This document shows, piece after piece, positions 9,800 through 32,984 of a stretch of DNA of 33,106 bases. The DNA is taken from IMG/VR virus record IMGVR_UViG_3300037506_000432, positions 1 to 33,106 of that record; one strand, given 5' to 3'. This DNA comes from a virus. Taxonomy: Duplodnaviria > Caudoviricetes. The translations under genes were made by a program, and so were the position numbers. Under the pieces are notes generated by a model. That model was not told the DNA's origin and made no database searches. It saw nothing but the letters and a program-made list of their open reading frames with translations. Numbering within the stretch: position 1 is the stretch's first letter; every line of letters begins with the position of its first letter.

Positions 9800-11071
9800 C
9801 TATGGGGGCGTCGCAACAAACGCCCGAACGGCTTGCCCTGGCATCTGAGCAAGTCCCGTACCTGCCTCCCCCGATAAGAGCGAGCACTCCTCCTTGCTCG
9901 CTCGCCCCGAAAACAGTACGCGCACAGCGACCATATCGTAGCCGCCGAAGTACAAGCGCGTAGAGAACTGTTGCGCTGTCGCACGCGGCAGCACATGTGC
10001 GTTGACGTACTGCGTAGCCGCTACGACGTGGATGCCCTCTGAGCGAGCGAGCCGCAGTAAGCTGTCGATCACAGCGCGTGCGTACACCGCGTCTCGCTTC
10101 CCTTTCCGCACGCTCACGAGCTCAGCAAGCTCGTCGATTGCCAGATAGATGCGCGGGAGCGAATCTCCTGTCTTAGCGACATACTCAGCATAATCTCTCG
10201 CTTTTGCGGACACGCGAAGCTGCTGCCTGCGCACACGCTCAGCGTCGATCTGCTGCAAGAGCGACAGCACGTCGGCTTGCGTCTCTGCGAGGACGTGTGC
10301 GACTGGAGCGAGCGCGACGCTCAAGTCCGACTTCAGGTCTACCACCCAAACCTCCCCACCTCCCCCAGCGAGCTGCCTGCACACGCTCACGAGCGTCGTT
10401 GTCTTGCCGCTCCCGCTCTCGCCAGCTACGAGCATGTGAGAGAACGATTGCGCCATGACCCGAAGCTCCTCGTCCCCCGACATCGTGTATCCCACGACGA
10501 ACAGCGGGGCGCTGGGAGTGCTAAGCTGCGCCCATGTACGCTGCGCTCTGCTCAGCGCTCCGCTCACGCTCCCGCTCGGCGCTCCGCTTGAGGGCGCGTA
10601 CGTGCCCAGTAGTCCTCTGAACGCGCTTTGCTCCGCGTACACAAGCTCGCGCTCATTGTACGCGCCAAGCTGCTCGACTGCTCCGGCGCTCTTTGCTACA
10701 TCAAACGGTACGAGCCCTGGCGCTCTGACGATTCGCGTGACGCGCACAGCGCTCCACGCAGCATACAGCGAGAGCGTGAGCGCGAGCGCTGCGGCAGTCA
10801 AGAGGATTGCTGTGAGGACAAGACTCGCAACCCTCCAATCGCCGTAGTGCGCTGTCCCGAAAAGATACGCGACGTACGCGCCCAATAGAAGCATGACGCT
10901 CGCTCCGAGAAACGCGAGCGCTAAGACGACGATGTCGCGTGTCACATGCCCCTGCGCTCGCTCGCGCCCTCTCAGCGCGCCCGCGTCGCGAGCGTCGTTA
11001 CTATCGGGATATCGGTCAGCGTCGTCCAGGATTGTAAGCCCCGACGAGCGCGCTCCCCCAAACCTACGCAT
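9800..11071 (-). CDS. FtsK/SpoIIIE-family ATPase with two N-terminal transmembrane helices
   Basis: HMLVAGESGSGKT (Walker A), VVDLK, E-R-x-R-R, LAIDELAEL (Walker B), LARSEGIHVVAATQ. Two hydrophobic segments near aa 46-105. Confidence 0.88.
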   Translation of the reverse strand: MRRFGGARSSGLTILDDADRYPDSNDARDAGALRGRERAQGHVTRDIVVLALAFLGASVMLLLGAYVAYLFGTAHYGDWRVASLVLTAILLTAAALALTLSLYAAWSAVRVTRIVRAPGLVPFDVAKSAGAVEQLGAYNERELVYAEQSAFRGLLGTYAPSSGAPSGSVSGALSRAQRTWAQLSTPSAPLFVVGYTMSGDEELRVMAQSFSHMLVAGESGSGKTTTLVSVCRQLAGGGGEVWVVDLKSDLSVALAPVAHVLAETQADVLSLLQQIDAERVRRQQLRVSAKARDYAEYVAKTGDSLPRIYLAIDELAELVSVRKGKRDAVYARAVIDSLLRLARSEGIHVVAATQYVNAHVLPRATAQQFSTRLYFGGYDMVAVRVLFSGRASKEECSLLSGEAGTGLAQMPGQAVRAFVATPP

Positions 11072-18678: not shown

Positions 18679-19128
18679 CTATGCGTACCGAAAGCGGTAT
18701 CCCTTATGTGTCGCTCGTGCCCCCGCAAGCACGAGCTGTGCTAGCCGATAGGACAACCCTCGTGACCGGCAGAACTGAGCCAGATTGTCGCTGTATCCGA
18801 ACTCAGTACCACACTCCCAGACAAAAGCTATGCCCGCGCCAGAGCCCGCGTTCTGCGGCTTGATCTGATTGAGCGCTATGTACCCTTCAGCTTGGACGCG
18901 CTGAAGGTGCGCGCTCTCTCGCGCTGTGAGCTGAGCGGGCGAGCATTTTTCTACAAGCTCGAAGCGTACGCTTTGAGCTCCGTCAAACGCTTGCTGGAGC
19001 AAGCGATTATCGTGCTTGCCTTTGGCCAGCTTGCCAAAGTGGGCCAACTTGCGCCGCTCGACCTCTAGCGACTGCCCGACATAAGCATATGTGCTATCGA
19101 TGGTTATCGTGTAAATGCCTACTGTCAT
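18679..19128 (-). CDS. GIY-YIG endonuclease with C-terminal NUMOD-like DNA-binding domain
   Basis: GIYTI...YVGQS...RR...H, H-x-N-x-x-LQ, RE, LN motifs; C-terminal NLAQFCR...THKGYRF. Start revised to ATG 19128 (GGAGG RBS). Confidence 0.88.
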   Translation of the reverse strand: MTVGIYTITIDSTYAYVGQSLEVERRKLAHFGKLAKGKHDNRLLQQAFDGAQSVRFELVEKCSPAQLTARESAHLQRVQAEGYIALNQIKPQNAGSGAGIAFVWECGTEFGYSDNLAQFCRSRGLSYRLAQLVLAGARATHKGYRFRYA

Positions 19129-19173
19129 TACAGACCTCCATGTACGAGCGGAGTGTTTATCCCCTACACTTAT

Positions 19174-19202
19174 ACTATACCACGTTTTCTCATCCGTGTC
19201 AA
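19174..19202 (-). promoter_or_regulatory. Sigma70-type promoter (cassette copy 5, GIY-YIG/replication operon)
   Basis: TTGACA-17 bp-TATAGT with extended -10 TG. Confidence 0.8.
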
Positions 19203-19274
19203 GAGGCAATTTTATAAAGCTTGCACAGCATGTAGTAATACGCTCTCGCTACACGCTGTGCTCTACAGTATGCC

Positions 19275-19673
19275 TTACGTGTCCGGCCAGGATACAAAAG
19301 TAGCGCCTTGGTCGCGCACATTGCGCATGTCTGCACCTTTAAAGGTGCAACCTAAAAGTTTGGCGGAGTTTAACACCGCCATTTCCAAATCCGCCGCGTC
19401 AAAAACGCATCTGCGGAGTGTTGCGTACTCAAAGTTGGCGCCTTCTAAGAAAGCGCCTGAGAAGTTGCAGTCTTCTACGTATGCGTACGCGAAAACTGCG
19501 CCCACCATGTCACAATCCTTAAACGAAACGTTCCGCAAAACGCAATTCGTAAAAACTGCGTTTTTGAGGTCTAGCCCACGAAAGTTCACATCTTTGAATA
19601 ATAACCCCGTAAACATGTACCGACCGTAGTCCCAGAACTTTTCCACACCTTCGTCTCCAATTAAGAGTTTCAT
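19275..19673 (-). CDS. Pentapeptide repeat protein (paralog 6)
   Basis: A/C-x-F/L-x-x periodicity (CNFSG AFLEG ANFEY ATLRR). Start revised to ATG 19673 (AAGGAG RBS). Confidence 0.9.
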   Translation of the reverse strand: MKLLIGDEGVEKFWDYGRYMFTGLLFKDVNFRGLDLKNAVFTNCVLRNVSFKDCDMVGAVFAYAYVEDCNFSGAFLEGANFEYATLRRCVFDAADLEMAVLNSAKLLGCTFKGADMRNVRDQGATFVSWPDT

Positions 19674-19716
19674 ATTGTTCTCCTTGTGTGTGTGTTTGAA
19701 TACTTCCGACACCTAG

Positions 19717-19745
19717 AGTATAGCACACGAGGCTCGGCTTGTCAA
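19717..19745 (-). promoter_or_regulatory. Sigma70-type promoter (cassette copy 4)
   Basis: TTGACA-17 bp-TATACT with extended -10 TG, inside a repeated block. Confidence 0.85.
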
Positions 19746-19768
19746 GAGGCATTTTTAAGCAGATAGCA

Positions 19769-19793
19769 CAGCGCAAGCTCAAAGCTTGCGCTG
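19769..19793 (-). terminator. Hairpin between pentapeptide cassettes, possible terminator
   Basis: CAGCGCAAGCT/AGCTTGCGCTG 11-bp stem with only a weak U-tract. A related copy lies at 20952-20982. Confidence 0.45.
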
Positions 19794-19810
19794 CGCTTCA
19801 AGCACGAGCG

Positions 19811-20194
19811 CTATTCGAATCGCGCAGTGCTCTTGTCTACCCCGCCCATCGACGCGGGGGAGAATACACAATCCCTGAATGTCGCGTTGTTCAACACAAC
19901 CTCATCCATAATAGCCATATCGAAGCTGCTCTCCGAAAAGACAGCCTTCGATAGCTTTGCACCTCTCAAATCGGCGCTTTCGAAATCAGCCTCCTCGACA
20001 ACCGAGCCTATGAAACTTGCGCCATTGAGAGAGCACCCATTGAACGAGACGTTTACAAGCTCCGAGCCGTCAAAACACGCCCCTACCAAATTAAGACCTT
20101 CGAAACTAATGTTTTCGATCAGCTCGTTGGAGAACTTGAAACGACCGTCCACCCAATAAGCTTCCAACGTCTGGGAATCGAACTTGTTGTACAT
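19811..20194 (-). CDS. Pentapeptide repeat protein (paralog 5)
   Basis: ADFES ADLRG AKLSK AVFSE repeats; AAGGAG RBS. Confidence 0.9.
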   Translation of the reverse strand: MYNKFDSQTLEAYWVDGRFKFSNELIENISFEGLNLVGACFDGSELVNVSFNGCSLNGASFIGSVVEEADFESADLRGAKLSKAVFSESSFDMAIMDEVVLNNATFRDCVFSPASMGGVDKSTARFE

Positions 20195-20236
20195 GTCAGT
20201 CTCCTTTGTGTGTATATGATTACTTCCGACACCTAG

Positions 20237-20265
20237 AGTATATCACATGCTGTGCAGCTTGTCAA
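20237..20265 (-). promoter_or_regulatory. Sigma70-type promoter (cassette copy 3)
   Basis: TTGACA-17 bp-TATACT with extended -10 TG. Confidence 0.85.
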
Positions 20266-20302
20266 GAGGCAGTTTTAGAAAGCTAGCACAGCATGTAGTA
20301 GT

Positions 20303-20860
20303 CTACTCGTAAGCTGGAGGTGTATCCTCCTCCACAAACGCCTCGATTAAGTCGCATTCTATAAACACGACGTTGGGAAGGTGCAAACAGGTAACGTTTG
20401 CGTTCGTGAAAACAGAGTTCCGCACCACAATGTGCGAGAAGTCCGCATAACGTAGCGAGCTATCGGCGAAATCGACAGTTTCCAAATACGCACTGTCAAA
20501 CGACGTCGTATCGCATACCGAGCGTGCAAACGTCGTATTTGCCGCAACTAAAGAGCTAAGGTTTGCGTTCTTTAAGCTTGCACTGTCAAATGTGCAGCCG
20601 ACACACCTAGCACTTACAAAATCCGCGCTGTACATTACAGCGCCCGAGAAGTCTGTATTCTCAAGGTATGCACGATTAAAGCTTGCGCCATTGAGCGCGC
20701 AACCTTTGAACGAAACGTTCATGAGGATAGCGCGATCGAAACAAGCGTTCGTCAAGGATACCCCCTCGAACGAGATACCAGAGAACGTGAGACCCGCAAA
20801 ATTGTATCTGTTACCGTCCCACGCGGACTCCAATACTTTTGAACTGATGTTTGCGTACAT
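20303..20860 (-). CDS. Pentapeptide repeat protein (paralog 4, longest)
   Basis: ASFNR AYLEN TDFSG AVMYS ADFVS repeats. Start revised to ATG 20860 (AAGGAG RBS). Confidence 0.9.
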   Translation of the reverse strand: MYANISSKVLESAWDGNRYNFAGLTFSGISFEGVSLTNACFDRAILMNVSFKGCALNGASFNRAYLENTDFSGAVMYSADFVSARCVGCTFDSASLKNANLSSLVAANTTFARSVCDTTSFDSAYLETVDFADSSLRYADFSHIVVRNSVFTNANVTCLHLPNVVFIECDLIEAFVEEDTPPAYE

Positions 20861-20902
20861 GTCAGTCTCCTTTGTGTGTATATGATTACTTCCGACACCT
20901 AG

Positions 20903-20931
20903 AGTATAGCACACGAGGCTCGGCTTGTCAA
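20903..20931 (-). promoter_or_regulatory. Sigma70-type promoter (cassette copy 2)
   Basis: TTGACA-17 bp-TATACT, identical to the copy at 19717-19745. Confidence 0.85.
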
Positions 20932-20951
20932 GAGGCATTTTTAAGCAGATA

Positions 20952-20982
20952 GCACAGCGCAAGCTCAAAACTTGCGCTGTGC
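20952..20982 (-). terminator. Hairpin between pentapeptide cassettes, possible terminator
   Basis: GCACAGCGCAAG/CTTGCGCTGTGC 12-bp stem just downstream of paralog 3. Confidence 0.45.
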
Positions 20983-20997
20983 CGCATACGCGGTACG

Positions 20998-21423
20998 CTA
21001 CCGCCGAGTACCGCTCCAGCTAACGGCATCGCCGTCGCAGCGAATAAGACGTGCAGAGCTAAGCTTAGCGTTTAACATCGAATACGGGCGTAGTGCACAA
21101 TTAACGAGCCGCGCACCAGAAAAGTCCACGCGATCCATAATCGCGCTGGTGAAATCGCAATTGACCAGCACTGCACCCTCAAAACTAGCGTCTCGCAGTG
21201 TCGCACTGCTGAAATCGACGTTTTCGAGATAAGCGTTGTCGAATAGCGTATCATCGCATACACAATACGTAAAAGTTGCGTTTTTGATGCTTGTGTCGCG
21301 GAATATTGTATAGCGCAATTCCATGTCCTCGAAAGACACGTTTGCAAAGAATAGTCCCGCAAACGAGTACTTTTCGCCGTCCCAGAACCCGCCGAGCGAA
21401 AGATCGCAGAATAAGGGCTCCAT
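20998..21423 (-). CDS. Pentapeptide repeat protein (paralog 3)
   Basis: AYLEN VDFSS ATLRD ASFEG AVLVN repeats; AGGAG RBS. Confidence 0.9.
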   Translation of the reverse strand: MEPLFCDLSLGGFWDGEKYSFAGLFFANVSFEDMELRYTIFRDTSIKNATFTYCVCDDTLFDNAYLENVDFSSATLRDASFEGAVLVNCDFTSAIMDRVDFSGARLVNCALRPYSMLNAKLSSARLIRCDGDAVSWSGTRR

Positions 21424-21436
21424 ACCGTACTCCTGT

Positions 21437-21826
21437 CTACTGTGGTAGTATCACAGCGTTGACGTAGTGTGCGCCGTTCAAGCGCGCACCTGCAAAATTA
21501 CAAGCGATACATTTGGCGTAGTATAGATCCATGCCATCCAACTCCGCCATAGGGAAGACTGACCTGCGGATGGTTGCGTGGCCAAAGTCGGCCTTGCGCA
21601 AAGAAGCGCCGTTGAAGGAACATTGCTCCAAATAAGCGTTTGCAAAAATGGAGTTGTCACACACGCAGTTGTCAAAGCCCACGTTTAGAAGCGTTGCGTC
21701 GTAGAAAGACGCGCCTGCGAGATGTATGCCCTCAAAAGACACATCCTCAAAAAACGCCCCGCTAAAAACGTACCGACCATCGACGAGATACCGCTCCAAT
21801 TCGGATTGTGCAAGCCTCTTGCGCAT
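21437..21826 (-). CDS. Pentapeptide repeat protein (paralog 2)
   Basis: AYLEQ CSFNG ASLRK ADFGH repeats; AAGGAGG RBS. Confidence 0.9.
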   Translation of the reverse strand: MRKRLAQSELERYLVDGRYVFSGAFFEDVSFEGIHLAGASFYDATLLNVGFDNCVCDNSIFANAYLEQCSFNGASLRKADFGHATIRRSVFPMAELDGMDLYYAKCIACNFAGARLNGAHYVNAVILPQ

Positions 21827-21891
21827 ATACCCTCCTTGTGTGATTACATAGCAGCGCGAAGTGTGGAGTACGCGCTACCACAGATACTATA

Positions 21892-22257
21892 CTACTCTAT
21901 AATTGTTACGTTACGGACTGTGTCAAGGACACAGTCTGTGAACTTTGCTTGTTGTATGGCAACGTACTCTAGGTTTGCAGCAGCAAACGTTGAGTTTTTG
22001 ACTGTAGCGTACGAGAAGTCCGCATTTCGCAGATTGGCATCGGAAAAATCGGCGTTCTCAATGTGCGCGTGTGCAAAACTTGCACCTGCGCAATCCGTAC
22101 CGCAAAAGCTCACGTTCCGCAGCAAGCACCCCTCAAAGTTTGCATTGACCAGCTCTACGCCCTCAAACGTCACTCCATCGAACATGTGACCGGTAAAATC
22201 GTACCGACCGTTTAACCAACAAGCTTCCAACGTCTCCGCGTCAATTGCCTTGTACAT
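21892..22257 (-). CDS. Pentapeptide repeat protein (paralog 1)
   Basis: ADFSD ANLRN ADFSY ATVKN repeats. Start revised to ATG 22257 (AAGGAGG RBS). Confidence 0.9.
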   Translation of the reverse strand: MYKAIDAETLEACWLNGRYDFTGHMFDGVTFEGVELVNANFEGCLLRNVSFCGTDCAGASFAHAHIENADFSDANLRNADFSYATVKNSTFAAANLEYVAIQQAKFTDCVLDTVRNVTIIE

Positions 22258-22297
22258 GTCAACCTCCTTAGTGTATATACTTACTAACGACACCTAG

Positions 22298-22326
22298 AGT
22301 ATATCACACGAGGCTCGGCCTGTCAA
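22298..22326 (-). promoter_or_regulatory. Sigma70-type promoter (cassette copy 1)
   Basis: TTGACA-17 bp-TATACT with extended -10 TG. Confidence 0.85.
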
Positions 22327-22344
22327 GAAGCATTGTGCACGACG

Positions 22345-22821
22345 CTACTCCATACGCTCGCGCTCCGCTCGCTCACGCACACGCTCAGCAAACAGAGCGT
22401 TGCGCGTACGCTCCTCGTTGCAGGACAGCATGCATGCAGCCCGACGCTCCGCGACAGCCCGCCAGTACTCCAGCTCCTCCGCGTACGCTAAGCTCTCCAG
22501 GCGCGGAAGCGGAGCGCTCCGCTCAAAGCTCAGCGGCAAGCGCACCCCCGCGTCCACTAACTGCGGCAGAAGCATGCACAGCCGCTCTGCAAGCGTCTGC
22601 GCTACAAGCATCTGCGATGTGGTGTACGCCTGGCCGTGCACGAGCATTCCGCGCAAGCGCTCGCTCAGAGCGTGTGCGAGCGCGTACACACGCGCATAGA
22701 GCGAGCGAGCGCTCGCTGGCGGCTGCATATCCGCAAGCTCTAGCTCCAGCCAATCAAGCCGCACGAGCGTATCGTACGGATAGTCCAGCACATCATACGG
22801 GGCGCGGGTACGGATTGTCAT
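22345..22821 (-). CDS. Hypothetical protein, tandem paralog B
   Basis: Shares YDVL-x-Y, DAGVRLPLSFER and YAEELEYWR with 22818-23333. Start revised to ATG 22821 (ATGA coupling, GAAAGGA RBS). Confidence 0.75.
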   Translation of the reverse strand: MTIRTRAPYDVLDYPYDTLVRLDWLELELADMQPPASARSLYARVYALAHALSERLRGMLVHGQAYTTSQMLVAQTLAERLCMLLPQLVDAGVRLPLSFERSAPLPRLESLAYAEELEYWRAVAERRAACMLSCNEERTRNALFAERVRERAERERME

Positions 22822-23333
22822 GAACGGACGTCCTTTCTCGCTTCCCACATCGCCTCAAACGGGCGTGTGCGTGGCGGGAGCTTGAGCCTTTTCAACAGTC
22901 GTAGAAACGCAGCGTTCCGCGCTTGCTGCGCCTCGCACATAAGCGGATTTCTGACTCGCCGCCAAGCGAGCTTACGCCAGTACTCCAGCTCCTCCGCATA
23001 CTCTAGTGTCGAGATGTCAGGAAGCGTCGTAGGGCGCTCAAAGCTCAGCGGCAAGCGCACGCCCGCGTCTGTAAGCGTACGTAGTACTCCTACAAGCGCG
23101 TCGATGTCCGCGTAGAATGCGGCGAGAGGGAATACGCGCTTGTGCACAAGAAGCCCGTGCAGGCGCCTGTGCAAGCTCCGCGCCAGCTTCAAAGCGCGAG
23201 CGTATACCGCAGCGCTTGTGTCGGGTGGGCAGGGGGCGGCAAGCTCATCCTTGAGCCATTCGAGCCGAGCGAGCGTGTCATGCGAATACTCCAGCACGTC
23301 ATACGCCTGGCTACTACGATTAGACAGTACCAT
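22818..23333 (-). CDS. Hypothetical protein, tandem paralog A
   Basis: First gene of the - arm, GAAAGGA RBS, clear paralog of the neighbouring gene. Confidence 0.75.
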   Translation of the reverse strand: MVLSNRSSQAYDVLEYSHDTLARLEWLKDELAAPCPPDTSAAVYARALKLARSLHRRLHGLLVHKRVFPLAAFYADIDALVGVLRTLTDAGVRLPLSFERPTTLPDISTLEYAEELEYWRKLAWRRVRNPLMCEAQQARNAAFLRLLKRLKLPPRTRPFEAMWEARKDVRS

Positions 23334-23392: not shown

Positions 23393-23422
23393 AGTATAGC
23401 AAAACGCTCACGCCAACGTCAA
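23393..23422 (-). promoter_or_regulatory. Sigma70-type promoter for the leftward arm
   Basis: TTGACG-18 bp-TATACT with extended -10 TG. Confidence 0.65.
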
Positions 23423-23607: not shown

Positions 23608-23879
23608 GGAGCGTGTGCGTATCGCTCAGCAAAGCGCATAGCAACGCGCAATGCCGAACAATATGCTTATTACGAATAGGTGTAGTAGGTACTATGCAAA
23701 AGACAGGACCATAGTACTAGCGAAACATTAAAGGAACATTAGAATTAACTATTCACACACGCTCCGCTCAGCTCCGCTCCAGCACAAGCTAAAGCTCAGC
23801 GTAGCCACGTACACGTGTAAAGCGTTTTAAATAGCGGGGTATTGACAGGGGGGGTTATAATCTAATTAGAAGAGCAAAA

Positions 23880-25075
23880 AGCTCAGCGGCGCTCGCAGCT
23901 GCCAGCCGACAGCTCGCAGCTCACAGCTCACAGCTACGAGCTAGCAGCTAGCAGCTCACAGCTAGCAGCTACGAGCTGTGCAGCTAAGCTAAGCGTAAGC
24001 TAAGCGTAAGCTTAAGCGCGAGCTTAAGCGCGAGCTTGCTTATATATACAAAGCAAAGCAACGCTAAGACGCAAGCAAGCAGAGCTCGCTACTCTATACA
24101 AAGCAAGCAACGCTAGCTAAGCTAAGCTAAGCTTGAGCTTAAGCGCGAGCTTGCTTAGACGCAAGCATATATACAAGCAACGCGAGCTAAGACGCATATA
24201 TATAAACAAGCAAAGCTCGCTAAGCTCGCTAAGACGTAAGCAAGCAGAGCTTGCTACTCTAAAGACAAACAAGCAAAGCGAGCTAAGCTAAGCTAAGCTA
24301 AGCTTGAGCTTAAGCGCGAGCTTGCTTAGCATAAACAAACAAAGCAGAGCAAGCAAAGCTCGACGCAAGCACACATAAGACGCACATAAGCAAAGCGAGC
24401 TACTCTAAACAAAGCAAGCAAAGCGAGCTAAGCTAAGCTAAGCTAAGCTAAGCTAAGCTAAGCGTAAGCTTGAGCGCGAGCTTGCTTAGACGCAAGTATA
24501 TAAACAAACAAAGCGAGCTAAGCTCGACGCAAGCATACAAAGCAAGCAAAGCTAGCTACGTCGCATATACAAACAAGCAAAGCTAGCTAAGACGCAAGCA
24601 AGCTAAGCGAGCTTGCTTATCTATATATACCGAACAAAGCAAGCTAAGCAAGACGCAAGCAATCTAAGCGAGCTAAGCTTAAGCTTAAGCTTGAGCTTGA
24701 GCTTGAGCGCGAGCTTGCTTATATATACAAAGCAAGCAAAGCTAGCTAAGACGCAAGCAAACATAAGACGCAAGCAAGCAGAGCTCGCTACTCTATACAA
24801 AGCAAGCAACGCTAAGCTAGCTAAGCTTAAGCTTGAGCTTGAGCTTGAGCTTGAGCTTGCTTATTCACTATATATAAGCAAAGCTAGCAAAGCTTGCTTC
24901 TATAGATATACCGAACAAAGCTAGCAAAGCTTAAGCTTAAGCTTAAGCTCGCTTTTTATAGATACATAAGCAAAGCTAGCAAAGCTTACATAGCTACACT
25001 CTATAAGCCGATCTTACGAAGCAAGCTTGCTAAGCTAAGCTAAGCTAAGCTAAGCTTGAGCTTAAGCTCTAGCAC
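23880..25075. repeat. AGCT-rich nested satellite-like repeat array
   Basis: 7-bp AGCT-periodic run (about 23910-23985), (AGCTA)7 at 24426-24460, (AAGCTT)2(GAGCTT)4 at 24823-24858, recurring GCGCGAGCTTGCTTA, and an exact 51-bp repeat at 24065-24115 and 24764-24814. Confidence 0.92.
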
Positions 25076-25104
25076 GCGCTAATTGTTTAGCGCCCAAACT
25101 ATGC

Positions 25105-25620
25105 CTTGCTTTAGGCGTATGGAGCTACATAAGATACGCAAAGCGTACTCTCTAGTCGCCTAAGCAAAGCTTACTCTCGGCGTATAAACGTAGCTAGCTA
25201 TGTCGTATAAGATAAGCATAACTTACTCTCGGCGTATAAGATACGCTATGTGTATCTTAGGCGTATAAGATAAGCTAGCCATACTCTAGTCGCCTAAGAT
25301 ACGCACAGCGTACTACCTAAGCTATGCTTGCTCTCGGCGTATAAGCTCAGCTAGCTATGCGTCTAAGATACGCATTACTTACTCTAGGCGTCTACGATAC
25401 GCAAAGCTTGCTCTAAACGTCTATAGATACGCAAAGCTTGCTCTCGGCGTATAAGCTCAGCTAGCTATGTCGCTTAAGATACGCATAGCGTACTACCTAA
25501 GCCAAGCTTGCTCTAGGCGTATACAGGAAGCTAGCTAGTCGCCTAAGCAAAGCGTACTCTCTACTCTCGCTAGTCGCTTAAGATACGCATAGCGTACTAC
25601 CTAAGCTCAGCTCAGCGCCT
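25105..25620. repeat. Iteron-like degenerate direct-repeat array
   Basis: TAAGATACGCAYAGCGTACTACCTAAGC at 25295, 25475 and 25579; GCTTGCTCTCGGCGTATAAGCTCAGCTAGCTATG at 25326 and 25436; repeated GGCGTATA. Confidence 0.85.
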
Positions 25621-27172: not shown

Positions 27173-29428
27173 ATGCGTGTTGTTGTCTCCATCCAGCTTG
27201 AGCCTCTGGCGCTAAGCTACCAAAACGACACGCTCACAGCGCGTGTATATACATATGCTGACGAGGTACTTGCCGCACCGGATACGCTCACGCTTAGCGT
27301 ATCCGACCCGGCGGGCGCTACCGTAATCTATACGCTCGCTCAGCTTACGACGCTCTCGCCCGGCGCGTACGAGCGTGCTATCGCTCTGCCGACGCTTGGC
27401 GTCTGGCGCATCAGAGCTGTTGCGACGTTTGCCGCTCAGAGCGATAGCGTGACGGTCACTCGCGATGTCGTCGCCCAGCCAGGCACAGCGCCTCCTCCGG
27501 CTCCAGGGCTGACGCTCACGAGTCTGTTGACGGAGCCGCCCGCGCTCCAAGCAGGAAACGTGCCGGTGTATGACGGCTCGGTGTGGAGGCCTGGCGCTGC
27601 TGGGGGTGGGGGAGGGGGCGGCGGAGCGCCAATTGCTAGCGCGAGCGTGAGCGGCACCGTCAAGACCAACAGTTCCGTCGCTGACCCTGTCGTCTATCTG
27701 CGCAGCGAGATTGATACGCTTCTTGGAGCGAAAGCGAGCGTCGCTCAGCTCAACGCTCACGAAGCTGACACAACAAGCGTCCATGGCATCGCGGATACAG
27801 CAGCGCTTGTGATTACATCCGACAGTCGCTTAAGCGACGCTCGTACTCCGCTCGCTCACGCGCACAGCATCGCAGATACAACAGGCTTGCAGGCTGCGCT
27901 TGACGCGAAAGCTCCAGCGTCTCATACGACGCAAGTCGCGAGCGCGTCTACGCTCGGGCATGTGCGGGTAGGGAGTGGGCTAGCGATTGACGGCAGCGGT
28001 GTGCTGAGCGCGAGCGGAGGTGGGGGCAGCGCTCCGATAGCGAGCGCGAGCGTGAGCGGTACGGTGAAGACCAACACGTCTGTCGCTGACCCTGTCGTCT
28101 ATCTAAGCAGCGAGATTGACGCATTCCTAGGGGCTAAAGCGAGCGTCGCTCAGCTCAGCACGCACGAAGCTGATACAACAAGCGTCCATGGGATTGCCGA
28201 CACAGCGGCGCTTGTAGTGACGACTGACGCTCGCTTGAGCGACGCTCGTACACCGCTGGCGCATACGCATGACGGAGCAGCAATTACGTCCGGCACAGTC
28301 GCGTTTGACCGCTTGCCAGTAGCAGCATCTGGCGCAGCTACAGCAAATACAGTCGTACAAGCGACAGACAGTCGCTTGAGCGATGCGCGCACACCGCTGG
28401 CGCATAACCATGACGGAGCGGCGATTACGACTGGGACTGTAGCGTTTGCGCGCCTACCGGTAGCGGCATCTGGCGCAGCTACGGCAAGCACAGTCGTACA
28501 AGCGACAGATAGTCGCTTGAGCGATGCTCGGACACCGCTCGCTCACGCTCACGACGGCTCGGCGATTACGACCGGCACAGTCGCGTTTGACCGCTTGCCG
28601 ATAGCAGCGTCGGGAGCAGCTACGGCAAGCACAGTCGTGCAAGCGACAGACTCTCGCTTGAGCGACGCTCGTACACCAACAGCACACTCGCACATCATCG
28701 CAGATACGACAGGATTACAATCTGCGCTCGATGATAAAGCTCCTGCGACACACACGACGCAAATCGCGAGCGCCTCTACGCTCGGGCATGTCAAGGTGGG
28801 CAGCGGGCTCGCGATAGATGGTACAGGGGTGCTGAGCGCGAGCGGGGGCGGGGGCGGGGGGAGCGCTCCGATAGCAAGCGCGAGCGTGAGTGGTACGGTG
28901 AAGACCAACAGTTCCGTCGCTGACCCGGTGGTGTACCTGAAAAGCGAGGTAGATAGCGGCTTTGCGGCAGCGTCGCACAGTCACGTGGTTGGCGACGTGA
29001 CCGGGCTCCAGACAGCGCTCGACGCGAAGCTCAGCACAGCGTACACGATTGTGCCGGTCCTCACGACAGGCACTGGCGCGTTGACGTTCACGAATCTTTC
29101 AGCGTCACGCCTGGAGCTGTTTGGCTCAAACCGCAACAGAATATTGATTGACGCGACGCTGTACACGCAGATTCGTTTCCTGTTCCAGTGCAACGTTGCG
29201 GGGACTGCAGCGTCGATAGTAGAGCTTGAGCGTAGCTCCACGGTGGGCGGTACCTACACGCTTATTACAGGCACGACGCTCAGTATTGGCACAACCGGAT
29301 TTAAAGACTCTGGGTGGGCGGCTATTGGGGCGACGGGCGAGCAGTTTATACGTGTGATGACGCAGGGCGGCGATGGAGCTGCTGACCCACAGGTCGGCAG
29401 TATCTATATTGCGCTGCGGCGCGTCTAA
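27173..29428 (+). CDS. Repeat-rich fibre protein (tail/head fibre-like)
   Basis: Gly linkers, three copies of APIASASVSGTVKTN-x-SVADPVVYL, repeated D-x-RLSDARTP-x-AH-x-H, three tandem 47-aa units and GLQ-x-ALD-x-K fibre repeats. Confidence 0.8.
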   Translation: MRVVVSIQLEPLALSYQNDTLTARVYTYADEVLAAPDTLTLSVSDPAGATVIYTLAQLTTLSPGAYERAIALPTLGVWRIRAVATFAAQSDSVTVTRDVVAQPGTAPPPAPGLTLTSLLTEPPALQAGNVPVYDGSVWRPGAAGGGGGGGGAPIASASVSGTVKTNSSVADPVVYLRSEIDTLLGAKASVAQLNAHEADTTSVHGIADTAALVITSDSRLSDARTPLAHAHSIADTTGLQAALDAKAPASHTTQVASASTLGHVRVGSGLAIDGSGVLSASGGGGSAPIASASVSGTVKTNTSVADPVVYLSSEIDAFLGAKASVAQLSTHEADTTSVHGIADTAALVVTTDARLSDARTPLAHTHDGAAITSGTVAFDRLPVAASGAATANTVVQATDSRLSDARTPLAHNHDGAAITTGTVAFARLPVAASGAATASTVVQATDSRLSDARTPLAHAHDGSAITTGTVAFDRLPIAASGAATASTVVQATDSRLSDARTPTAHSHIIADTTGLQSALDDKAPATHTTQIASASTLGHVKVGSGLAIDGTGVLSASGGGGGGSAPIASASVSGTVKTNSSVADPVVYLKSEVDSGFAAASHSHVVGDVTGLQTALDAKLSTAYTIVPVLTTGTGALTFTNLSASRLELFGSNRNRILIDATLYTQIRFLFQCNVAGTAASIVELERSSTVGGTYTLITGTTLSIGTTGFKDSGWAAIGATGEQFIRVMTQGGDGAADPQVGSIYIALRRV

Positions 29429-32707: not shown

Positions 32708-32720
32708 GCGTAGAGATACG

Positions 32721-32747
32721 AAATCCCCAGCGAAACGCTGGGGTTTT
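32721..32747. terminator. Bidirectional intrinsic terminator
   Basis: CCCCAGCG-AAA-CGCTGGGG stem-loop with TTTT downstream and AAAT upstream, between convergent genes. Confidence 0.75.
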
Positions 32748-32783
32748 GGTGTTGCTCGCGTCATGTGAGGGGCTATGTAGGAG

Positions 32784-32984
32784 CTACGGTTGCAGTACGT
32801 TACGGACGTACCGCAAAAGCTCTTCCTTCGTGTCGGCTTCCATATGTACCGCTTCGCCGCCAACCCGTAGGGTAGCTTGGTAGCGCGGCTCGCGACCGTG
32901 CTCGTACGAGAAGTAGCCGACAGGGGTACCGTCCCTGTAGACCTTGTGGTAGTGCTCGTCTAAACGCCGGGTTGTGAGCTTCAT
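32784..32984 (-). CDS. Small hypothetical protein, moron-like antisense insertion in head module
   Basis: 66 aa with AGGAGGG RBS, its own promoter and a downstream terminator. Confidence 0.75.
   Translation of the reverse strand: MKLTTRRLDEHYHKVYRDGTPVGYFSYEHGREPRYQATLRVGGEAVHMEADTKEELLRYVRNVLQP

Follow-up and report, generated by a model that had tools for sequence, protein, structure and literature searches.

Six adjacent pentapeptide-repeat paralogs and their mosaic promoter cassettes in a freshwater phage record

The IMG/VR record IMGVR_UViG_3300037506_000432 (Duplodnaviria; Caudoviricetes) is a linear sequence of 33,106 bases, with a completeness estimated by the database at 40%; the whole of it was analyzed and is referred to here as the window. 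At positions 19,275 to 22,257 its minus strand carries six adjacent genes for pentapeptide-repeat proteins (PRPs), designated P1 to P6, four of which stand directly behind copies of one promoter-bearing intergenic repeat. The array is real, old and maintained; its cassettes are built like the promoter-early stem-loop (PeSL) cassettes of T4-type phages, and a missing gene has been sighted once. It combines, in a new form, the PRP accessory genes already known from phages with the known principle of promoter-cassette shuffling. The explanation preferred for it, held tentatively and with a probability of roughly 45%, is that the genes form a shufflable early repertoire of proteins that would bind host proteins through the surface of their beta-helices, rather than dimeric DNA mimics of the MfpA/Qnr type.

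The six genes and the fold of their products

The six open reading frames (ORFs) are intact, have Shine-Dalgarno motifs and encode 121–185 amino acids, in agreement with an earlier reading of the letters alone (the sequence-only reading), which had noticed six adjacent paralogs of about 120–185 amino acids. All six products exceed the cut-offs of the Pfam families PF00805 and PF13599, with 20–33 repeat units per protein, and every PF00805 match in the 33,106-base record (15/15) falls within these six ORFs. The array takes up 3 kb of the 33-kb record; encoded on the minus strand, it stands where the replication arm begins and opposite the genes for virion structure, a location that fits the earlier view of the proteins as non-structural. 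The genes, together with the neighboring gene that shares their type of cassette, are as follows.

P1, 21892..22257, minus strand: PRP of 121 amino acids, net charge −10; modeled with a helix cap at the N-terminus and about 5 coils, and with no C-terminal helix
P2, 21437..21826, minus strand: PRP of 129 amino acids, net charge −3; no repeat cassette, likely co-transcribed with P1
P3, 20998..21423, minus strand: PRP of 141 amino acids, net charge −7; starts 13 nucleotides (nt) past P2, no promoter of its own
P4, 20303..20860, minus strand: PRP of 185 amino acids, net charge −11; about 8 coils and an acidic tail; allelic variants in both metagenome runs (see below)
P5, 19811..20194, minus strand: PRP of 127 amino acids, net charge −11; highest acidity per residue
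P6, 19275..19673, minus strand: PRP of 132 amino acids, net charge −4; bypassed by one X2 contig
GIY-YIG gene, 18679..19128, minus strand: homing-endonuclease-like, 149 amino acids, same cassette type; matches lie under curated cut-offs

Identity among the paralogs is 31–45% over aligned pairs (29–43% to the first row of the alignment), and every one of the 15 pairs is saturated at synonymous sites (pS 0.71–0.91, uncorrected), so that the ratio of nonsynonymous to synonymous rates (dN/dS) is not estimable for them. When residues are oriented by the rule for PRPs given in an excerpt of PMC10886550, pN is 0.18–0.29 at inward positions, which are conserved, and 0.49–0.65 at outward positions, which are variable. 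Since the branches of the paralog tree are long and unresolved, the copies are not recent dosage duplicates; judged from these comparisons, the duplications are old and the fold is under purifying selection. The N-terminal motif set out in the sequence-only reading is present as written, but the helix cap comprises only residues ~7–18 (with the helix itself at 7–13 in the P1 model) and the remainder of the motif belongs to the first coil; similarly, the divergence reported beyond the cap holds as regards identity, but the six sequences align without a gap through residue 93 and share two invariant surface residues, N48 and E67. The cap-only profile that had been proposed as a check was built and, among 559 sequences, matched only the six source proteins (a result that is circular for those six and comes from a small set). 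Homolog searches with a profile of the six genes returned generic or giant PRPs only; P1 is present in the ESM Atlas, an exact look-up of 14 start-codon variants of the six genes gave 0/14, and PADLOC gave no match for any of the six. The AT-richness noticed earlier is borne out, with GC contents of 0.476–0.513 in the six ORFs vs. 0.528–0.642 in the 26 other ORFs; approximately two thirds of the difference comes from amino-acid make-up (reference genes 0.596; expectation from residues 0.527; observed 0.495).

The beta-helical fold expected of the family is predicted with confidence for P1, the one paralog that was modeled: the AlphaFold2 model (pLDDT 92.5) consists of a helix at residues 7–13 followed by a beta-helix of about 5 coils, with no helix after residue 13 and no C-terminal dimerization helix (the last 11 residues have pLDDT 56–67). 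P2, P3, P5, and P6 keep the repeat register to their C-terminal ends. The top five fold matches of the P1 model in the VIA search are all PRPs (Z 17.2–16.1), and many phage PRPs are found as well; among characterized proteins the values are 15.7 for MfpA, 15.3 for AhQnr, 13.8 for Np275, and 9.6 for HalA. A homodimer prediction for P1 (score 0.00, mark 0.42) is evidence in neither direction. In the model, the architecture of P1 is closest to that of Np275, with the N-terminus capped and the C-terminus open: Np275/Np276 of Nostoc punctiforme (PDB 2J8I, 2J8K; Z 13.8–14.7 and 20–24% identity to P1) are likewise short PRPs, helix-capped at the N-terminus and with the C-terminal coil left uncapped, and their genes adjoin each other (excerpts of PMC8145042), but they represent a cellular split gene of unknown function and no promoter-cassette array.

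Promoter cassettes and an arrangement without P6

One mosaic intergenic repeat, a 110-nt family (D2), precedes P1, P4, P5, P6, and the GIY-YIG gene; in it, TTGACA-17-TATACT or TATAGT is followed by a leader and a Shine-Dalgarno site. Its promoters match 11 of the 12 consensus bases of σ70, and the whole record has six sites of this quality, five of them before these genes. The cassettes, and a weaker site before P2, are listed here (z, hairpin score).

22258..22335, minus strand: cassette before P1; TTGACA-17-TATACT at 22326-22298, leader, Shine-Dalgarno; hairpin not significant (z −1.1)
21899..21945, minus strand: weaker promoter-like site before P2 (10/12), in the last P1 codons; −35 box within a hairpin (z −3.7, −4.3)
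20861..20997, minus strand: cassette before P4; 14-bp hairpin (z −4.6), TTGACA-17-TATACT at 20931-20903, leader, Shine-Dalgarno
20195..20302, minus strand: cassette before P5; promoter at 20265-20237; weak hairpin (z 0.85, −2.1)
19674..19810, minus strand: cassette before P6; 15-bp hairpin (z −3.2), promoter at 19745-19717
19129..19274, minus strand: cassette before the GIY-YIG gene, a diverged copy; hairpin (z −3.2), TTGACA-17-TATAGT at 19202-19174

The cassettes are far more similar to one another than are the genes behind them: identical runs extend over 83 nt between the P4 and P6 copies and 54 nt between those of P4 and P5, while pairs among P1, P4, P5, and P6 match at 119–142 of their first 270 coding bases. 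Their pairing is also mosaic. Upstream of the −35 box the P4 copy goes with that of P6 and the P5 copy with that of GIY-YIG (44 and 36 matches, respectively, in the upstream 45 nt, with 13–25 in the other pairs), whereas downstream the P4 copy goes with that of P5. Because the cassettes are mosaic and more alike than the genes, they are read as products of repeated recombination or conversion among the copies, and shuffling of cassettes is considered likely. As had been proposed from the sequence alone, the array is very probably expressed early, a view that builds on the host-type σ70 promoters.

The phage sequence is present in two freshwater metagenome runs from two separate studies, X1 and X2, of which X1 may be the sample that the record came from. 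In X2, a 352-nt contig leads from the P5 end and the −35 box (19740) to the GIY-YIG start (19129); since unique P5 and GIY-YIG coding sequences flank the joint (with 2 and 5 mismatches), P6 is skipped in this contig. A separate P6-like piece with 13 differences also occurs in X2. Among 40 of the 90 variants, those listed, 23 lie in P4 and P5, where they alter 20 codons, 10 synonymously and 10 non-synonymously; the listed variants of P4 include 8 replacements, 5 of them at outward repeat positions. The skipped P6, the P4/P5 alleles and the saturated, old paralogs are consistent with the earlier description of an expanding and variable family. Depth in X1 is 118 for P1–P3, 131 for P6 with the GIY-YIG gene and 168–182 for the flanking contigs, figures that are contig depths and not a count of copies.

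PeSL cassettes, according to excerpts of PMC2839356, are intergenic repeats of ~100 nt, each with a consensus σ70 promoter, a stem-loop and a Shine-Dalgarno site, in front of early genes that are non-essential; in the T4-type phages RB49 and phi1, recombination between flanking cassettes removes single genes, and excised mini-circles are a further mark of PeSL. Five copies of an intergenic repeat of about that length with promoter and Shine-Dalgarno site are found here. For the stem-loop, to which termination is ascribed in PeSL, a possible counterpart is the strong hairpin in three of the five cassettes (P4, P6, and GIY-YIG; z −3.2 to −4.6), and for single-gene loss it may be the X2 contig that skips P6. 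The differences are that the record is 33 kb long and siphovirus-like, that it has five copies vs. ~50, that the cargo is one paralog family, and that the cassettes do not lie, as PeSL do, in hyperplastic regions of a T4-type phage. By this analogy the cassettes would work like PeSL, but they are not classed as PeSL.

Proposed function and rival explanations

The preferred reading, a shufflable early repertoire of host-protein binders, starts from the six intact paralogs and five mosaic cassettes. At entry, host RNA polymerase would fire the promoters, giving a P1-P2-P3 transcript and separate transcripts of P4, P5, P6, and the GIY-YIG gene. The products are predicted to be helix-capped rods with an open C-terminal end (from the P1 model), a conserved core and a variable outer surface. 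Recombination at the repeats, a possible outcome of which was seen once, would add, remove or reorder single genes while expression is kept, and the paralogs may in this way cover different host strains or partner proteins. That the PRPs bind host proteins at all is rather probable; the proposed partners are host defense or DNA-handling factors, which would be blunted by binding. A more elaborate version, in which each cassette holds one beta-helix decoy against a different host immune or DNA-binding protein, open C-terminal coils let different paralogs stack in one rod and this anti-defense magazine is refilled for each strain through recombination between repeats, is quite unlikely; it would, if true, give a first role to phage PRPs, a widespread family for which the searches found no assigned function.

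Several observations weigh against the repertoire. Searches for relatives of the phage yielded none with a comparable PRP array. The hairpin is weak or absent in two of the five cassettes (P1 and P5), P2 and P3 have no cassette, and the hairpins lack a U-run, with none (0) scored as a terminator on the coding strand. The joint that skips P6 is a single X2 contig of depth 4.9, aligned at a likeness setting of 80%, and 63 letters are unlike between its two sides; it therefore shows a variant arrangement but does not amount to a clean crossover of the copies present in the window. Variability at outward positions is expected of any PRP family, saturation bars a dN/dS test, and the natural variants, too few to establish positive selection, give no clear sign of it.

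The main rival is the one that the sequence-only reading had favored, namely genuine DNA mimicry: the proteins would be acidic rods that fill the DNA sites of gyrase, topoisomerase IV or defense nucleases, and the open C-terminal coils may join such rods end to end. Phages do encode gyrase inhibitors, Gip and Igy (excerpts of PMC10886550), the right-handed quadrilateral beta-helix is shared with MfpA, Qnr, and AlbG (Z 11.0–15.7), and, like theirs, the net charge is negative in all six proteins (−0.023 to −0.087 per residue). Compared with 66 generic PRPs, a background of whole proteins, some with extra domains, that may overstate the contrast, P1 and P5 are more acidic per residue than any (0/66), and only 2/66 and 5/66 reach P4 and P3, respectively; outward charge per repeat is −0.275 (n = 142) vs. 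−0.153 in the background (n = 1147). P2 and P6, however, lie in the ordinary PRP range (equaled by 19/66 and 14/66), and the most acidic face, located by sequence register and not by a surface map, differs from paralog to paralog. DNA mimics of the MfpA/Ocr/ArdA type present phosphate-spaced rows of acidic residues on an elongated dimer. The acidity that the DNA-mimic idea implies is real, but by sequence register it falls on no common face. A likeness to MfpA and Qnr that goes further than the fold finds no support. PRPs that act on topoisomerases are longer (180–216 residues for MfpA, Qnr, and AlbG), dimerize head to head through a C-terminal helix (excerpts of PMC8145042, PMC7897471, PMC7980463, and PMC10886550) and have 8–9 coils where these are counted in review (excerpts of PMC8145042 and PMC7897471), in contrast to the ~5 coils and missing C-terminal helix of the P1 model; Qnr and AlbG, though not MfpA, also need loops (same four sources), and here coils 1–4 bear none, the 5-residue register running ungapped through residues 19–93 in all six proteins and the sole insertion consisting of whole repeats. 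Members of this topoisomerase-acting group bind GyrB, stimulate its ATPase or give protection against gyrase poisons. The best scores against family models are 38.8 bits for Qnr (cut-off 240) and 31.5 bits for MfpA (cut-off 360). DNA mimicry is accordingly regarded as unlikely.

It is quite improbable that the array is mainly a by-product that owes its duplication and spread to promoter cassette and homing endonuclease, with copies that are redundant or nearly neutral. The repeats would suffice for generating duplications, the GIY-YIG gene sits behind the same cassette type, P6 can be missing from its slot, and no binding face stands out, the apparently higher conservation of faces 2 and 3 falling short of significance (permutation p 0.089); against this, six frames have stayed intact through synonymous saturation, with the core conserved and N48 and E67 invariant at the surface, in old copies that occupy so large a share of the record. 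Another explanation, judged very unlikely, makes the PRPs decoys of beta-helical domains from host immune proteins (HalA of Hailong, or NACHT/NLR-type proteins whose sensors are pentapeptide repeats) that jam assembly or soak up ligands. Pentapeptide repeats are counted among the sensor or effector domains in bacterial NACHT and vWA conflict systems (excerpts of 10.1101/2022.07.19.500537 and PMC7159879), all six PRPs give weak matches to the HalA model (E 1e-9 to 9e-5, 22–38 bits), and the P1 model aligns to HalA residues 38–153 (Z 9.6). These HalA scores are no better than those of other PRP models, however, and lie far below the cut-off of 250 bits, HalA ranks 20th by fold, and it has a transmembrane channel domain where the phage proteins consist of repeats throughout; no match to HalB was found among the scanned neighbor genes, and in five Chloroflexales genomes PRP matches fall in frames of 204–343 amino acids, with no long NACHT-type fusion among the scored matches. 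That the PRPs are virion parts, such as beta-helical fibers or decoration proteins, is hardly credible: beta-helices are known in tail fibers, and phage tail structures give weak fold matches (Z 6.0–6.5), but fiber-like matches do not exceed background Z, and the minus-strand genes, placed at the start of the replication arm and opposite the structural ones, follow host-type promoters.

The phage, its relatives and other features of the record

The record encodes terminase, portal, head-morphogenesis, tape measure and tube-like proteins, a family A DNA polymerase, a helicase, an exonuclease, and an amidase, a gene content from which a siphovirus-like phage is inferred. Its host is probably a member of the Chloroflexales, though this is unconfirmed, because the best cellular matches of the amidase are mostly from Chloroflexota (8 of the 10 top rows, 37–41% identity); the query was an alignment, possibly biased toward Chloroflexota, and Patescibacteria are frequent among lower-ranked matches. 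No CRISPR spacer to the phage was found, 167 Chloroflexales genomes giving eight short matches, none of them inside a CRISPR array, and the promoter pattern occurs in 0 of 78 genomes at the level of Chloroflexaceae. Queries of viral_contigs with the polymerase, P1, the amidase, two promoter patterns and the gene pair adjoining the array returned no usable relative, in a search from which very near records may have been left out. In metagenome_contigs the promoter pattern gave 31 single matches, none of which (0/31) is similar to the window in DNA and one of which had an unrelated PRP. The terminase had no match in genome_contigs, nor the tube protein among cultured phages; the helicase has one homolog cluster at 90%, and there is a sibling contig 33,853 nt long. 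The virus records that encode a related amidase have little else in common with the window, and a PRP match was found in none of 50 (50 of 76 loci; 14 near-complete; positive control 4/4).

Among 50,697 cultured-phage records, 105 match P1, 6 match P4, and 187 match P6, and by such matches PRP genes are common in phages. In four records picked by hand for their many matching places, and not as a survey, there are one PRP gene (RW), two (Barba5S, by annotation), two adjacent (MaMV-DC), and three dispersed (B23). Phage PRPs such as Mycobacterium Goku gp56, Caulobacter RW gp016, those of Rheinheimera Barba phages, Microcystis MaMV-DC ORF31/32, and Listeria CKA15_017 belong to the same Pfam families and share the fold; uncharacterized as they are, they usually sit among small accessory genes, have 26–42% identity to P1, P4, and P6 among the matches listed, and were not found to carry the cap motif. 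Among the literature matches listed, from a search that left most subscription journals and supplements outside, there is no phage PRP array and no tested phage PRP; the nearest match, in an excerpt of PMC12282133, is the annotation of a single PRP gene of a Listeria phage, and a 2021 review, in the parts available, gives explicit functions for two PRP groups only, neither of them viral (PMC8145042). The locus offers a test set of six old, intact, separately promoted paralogs with natural presence/absence variation that can be cloned side by side, and it would broaden PeSL-like shuffling of cassettes to include a small, uncultured phage whose host is probably among the Chloroflexales.

Directly upstream of the array, on the minus strand, lies a second tandem pair of paralogs (22345-22821 and 22818-23333; 43% identical), with a promoter-like site at 23422; neither paralog is matched in Pfam, PHROG, NCBIfam, or PADLOC, and viral_contigs gave no relative of the pair. 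Further on, at 23842-23861 (plus strand), perfect TTGACA and TATAAT hexamers stand only 8 nt apart, separated by seven G plus T, and are spanned by an X1 contig without a gap; a longer G run would give a consensus promoter directed into the region that follows. This region (23880-25620), ~1.7 kb of non-coding, low-complexity repeats of AGCT-containing words (63.8 AGCT per kb vs. 9.2 elsewhere), lies between the divergent early and lysis/structural arms, at the turn of the GC skew, and has length variants in both runs; it is a candidate origin or genome-end region. It has no Rfam match, as is true of the window as a whole.

GATC is depleted throughout the window (36 observed vs. 95 expected, ratio 0.38), which suggests pressure from a GATC-cutting host enzyme. 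A stand-alone, moron-like gene of 66 amino acids (32784-32984, minus strand) follows the head-morphogenesis gene; near it are the record's sixth 11/12 promoter (33048) and, at 32715-32760, a strong hairpin (z −5.0 on the plus and −3.4 on the minus strand). The replication arm ends with a gene for a membrane-anchored ATPase of the FtsK/HerA type (9800-11071, minus strand), and a tail-fiber-like gene with 3.2 copies of a 141-nt unit (27173-29428, plus strand) is placed between amidase and terminase, apart from the other tail genes.

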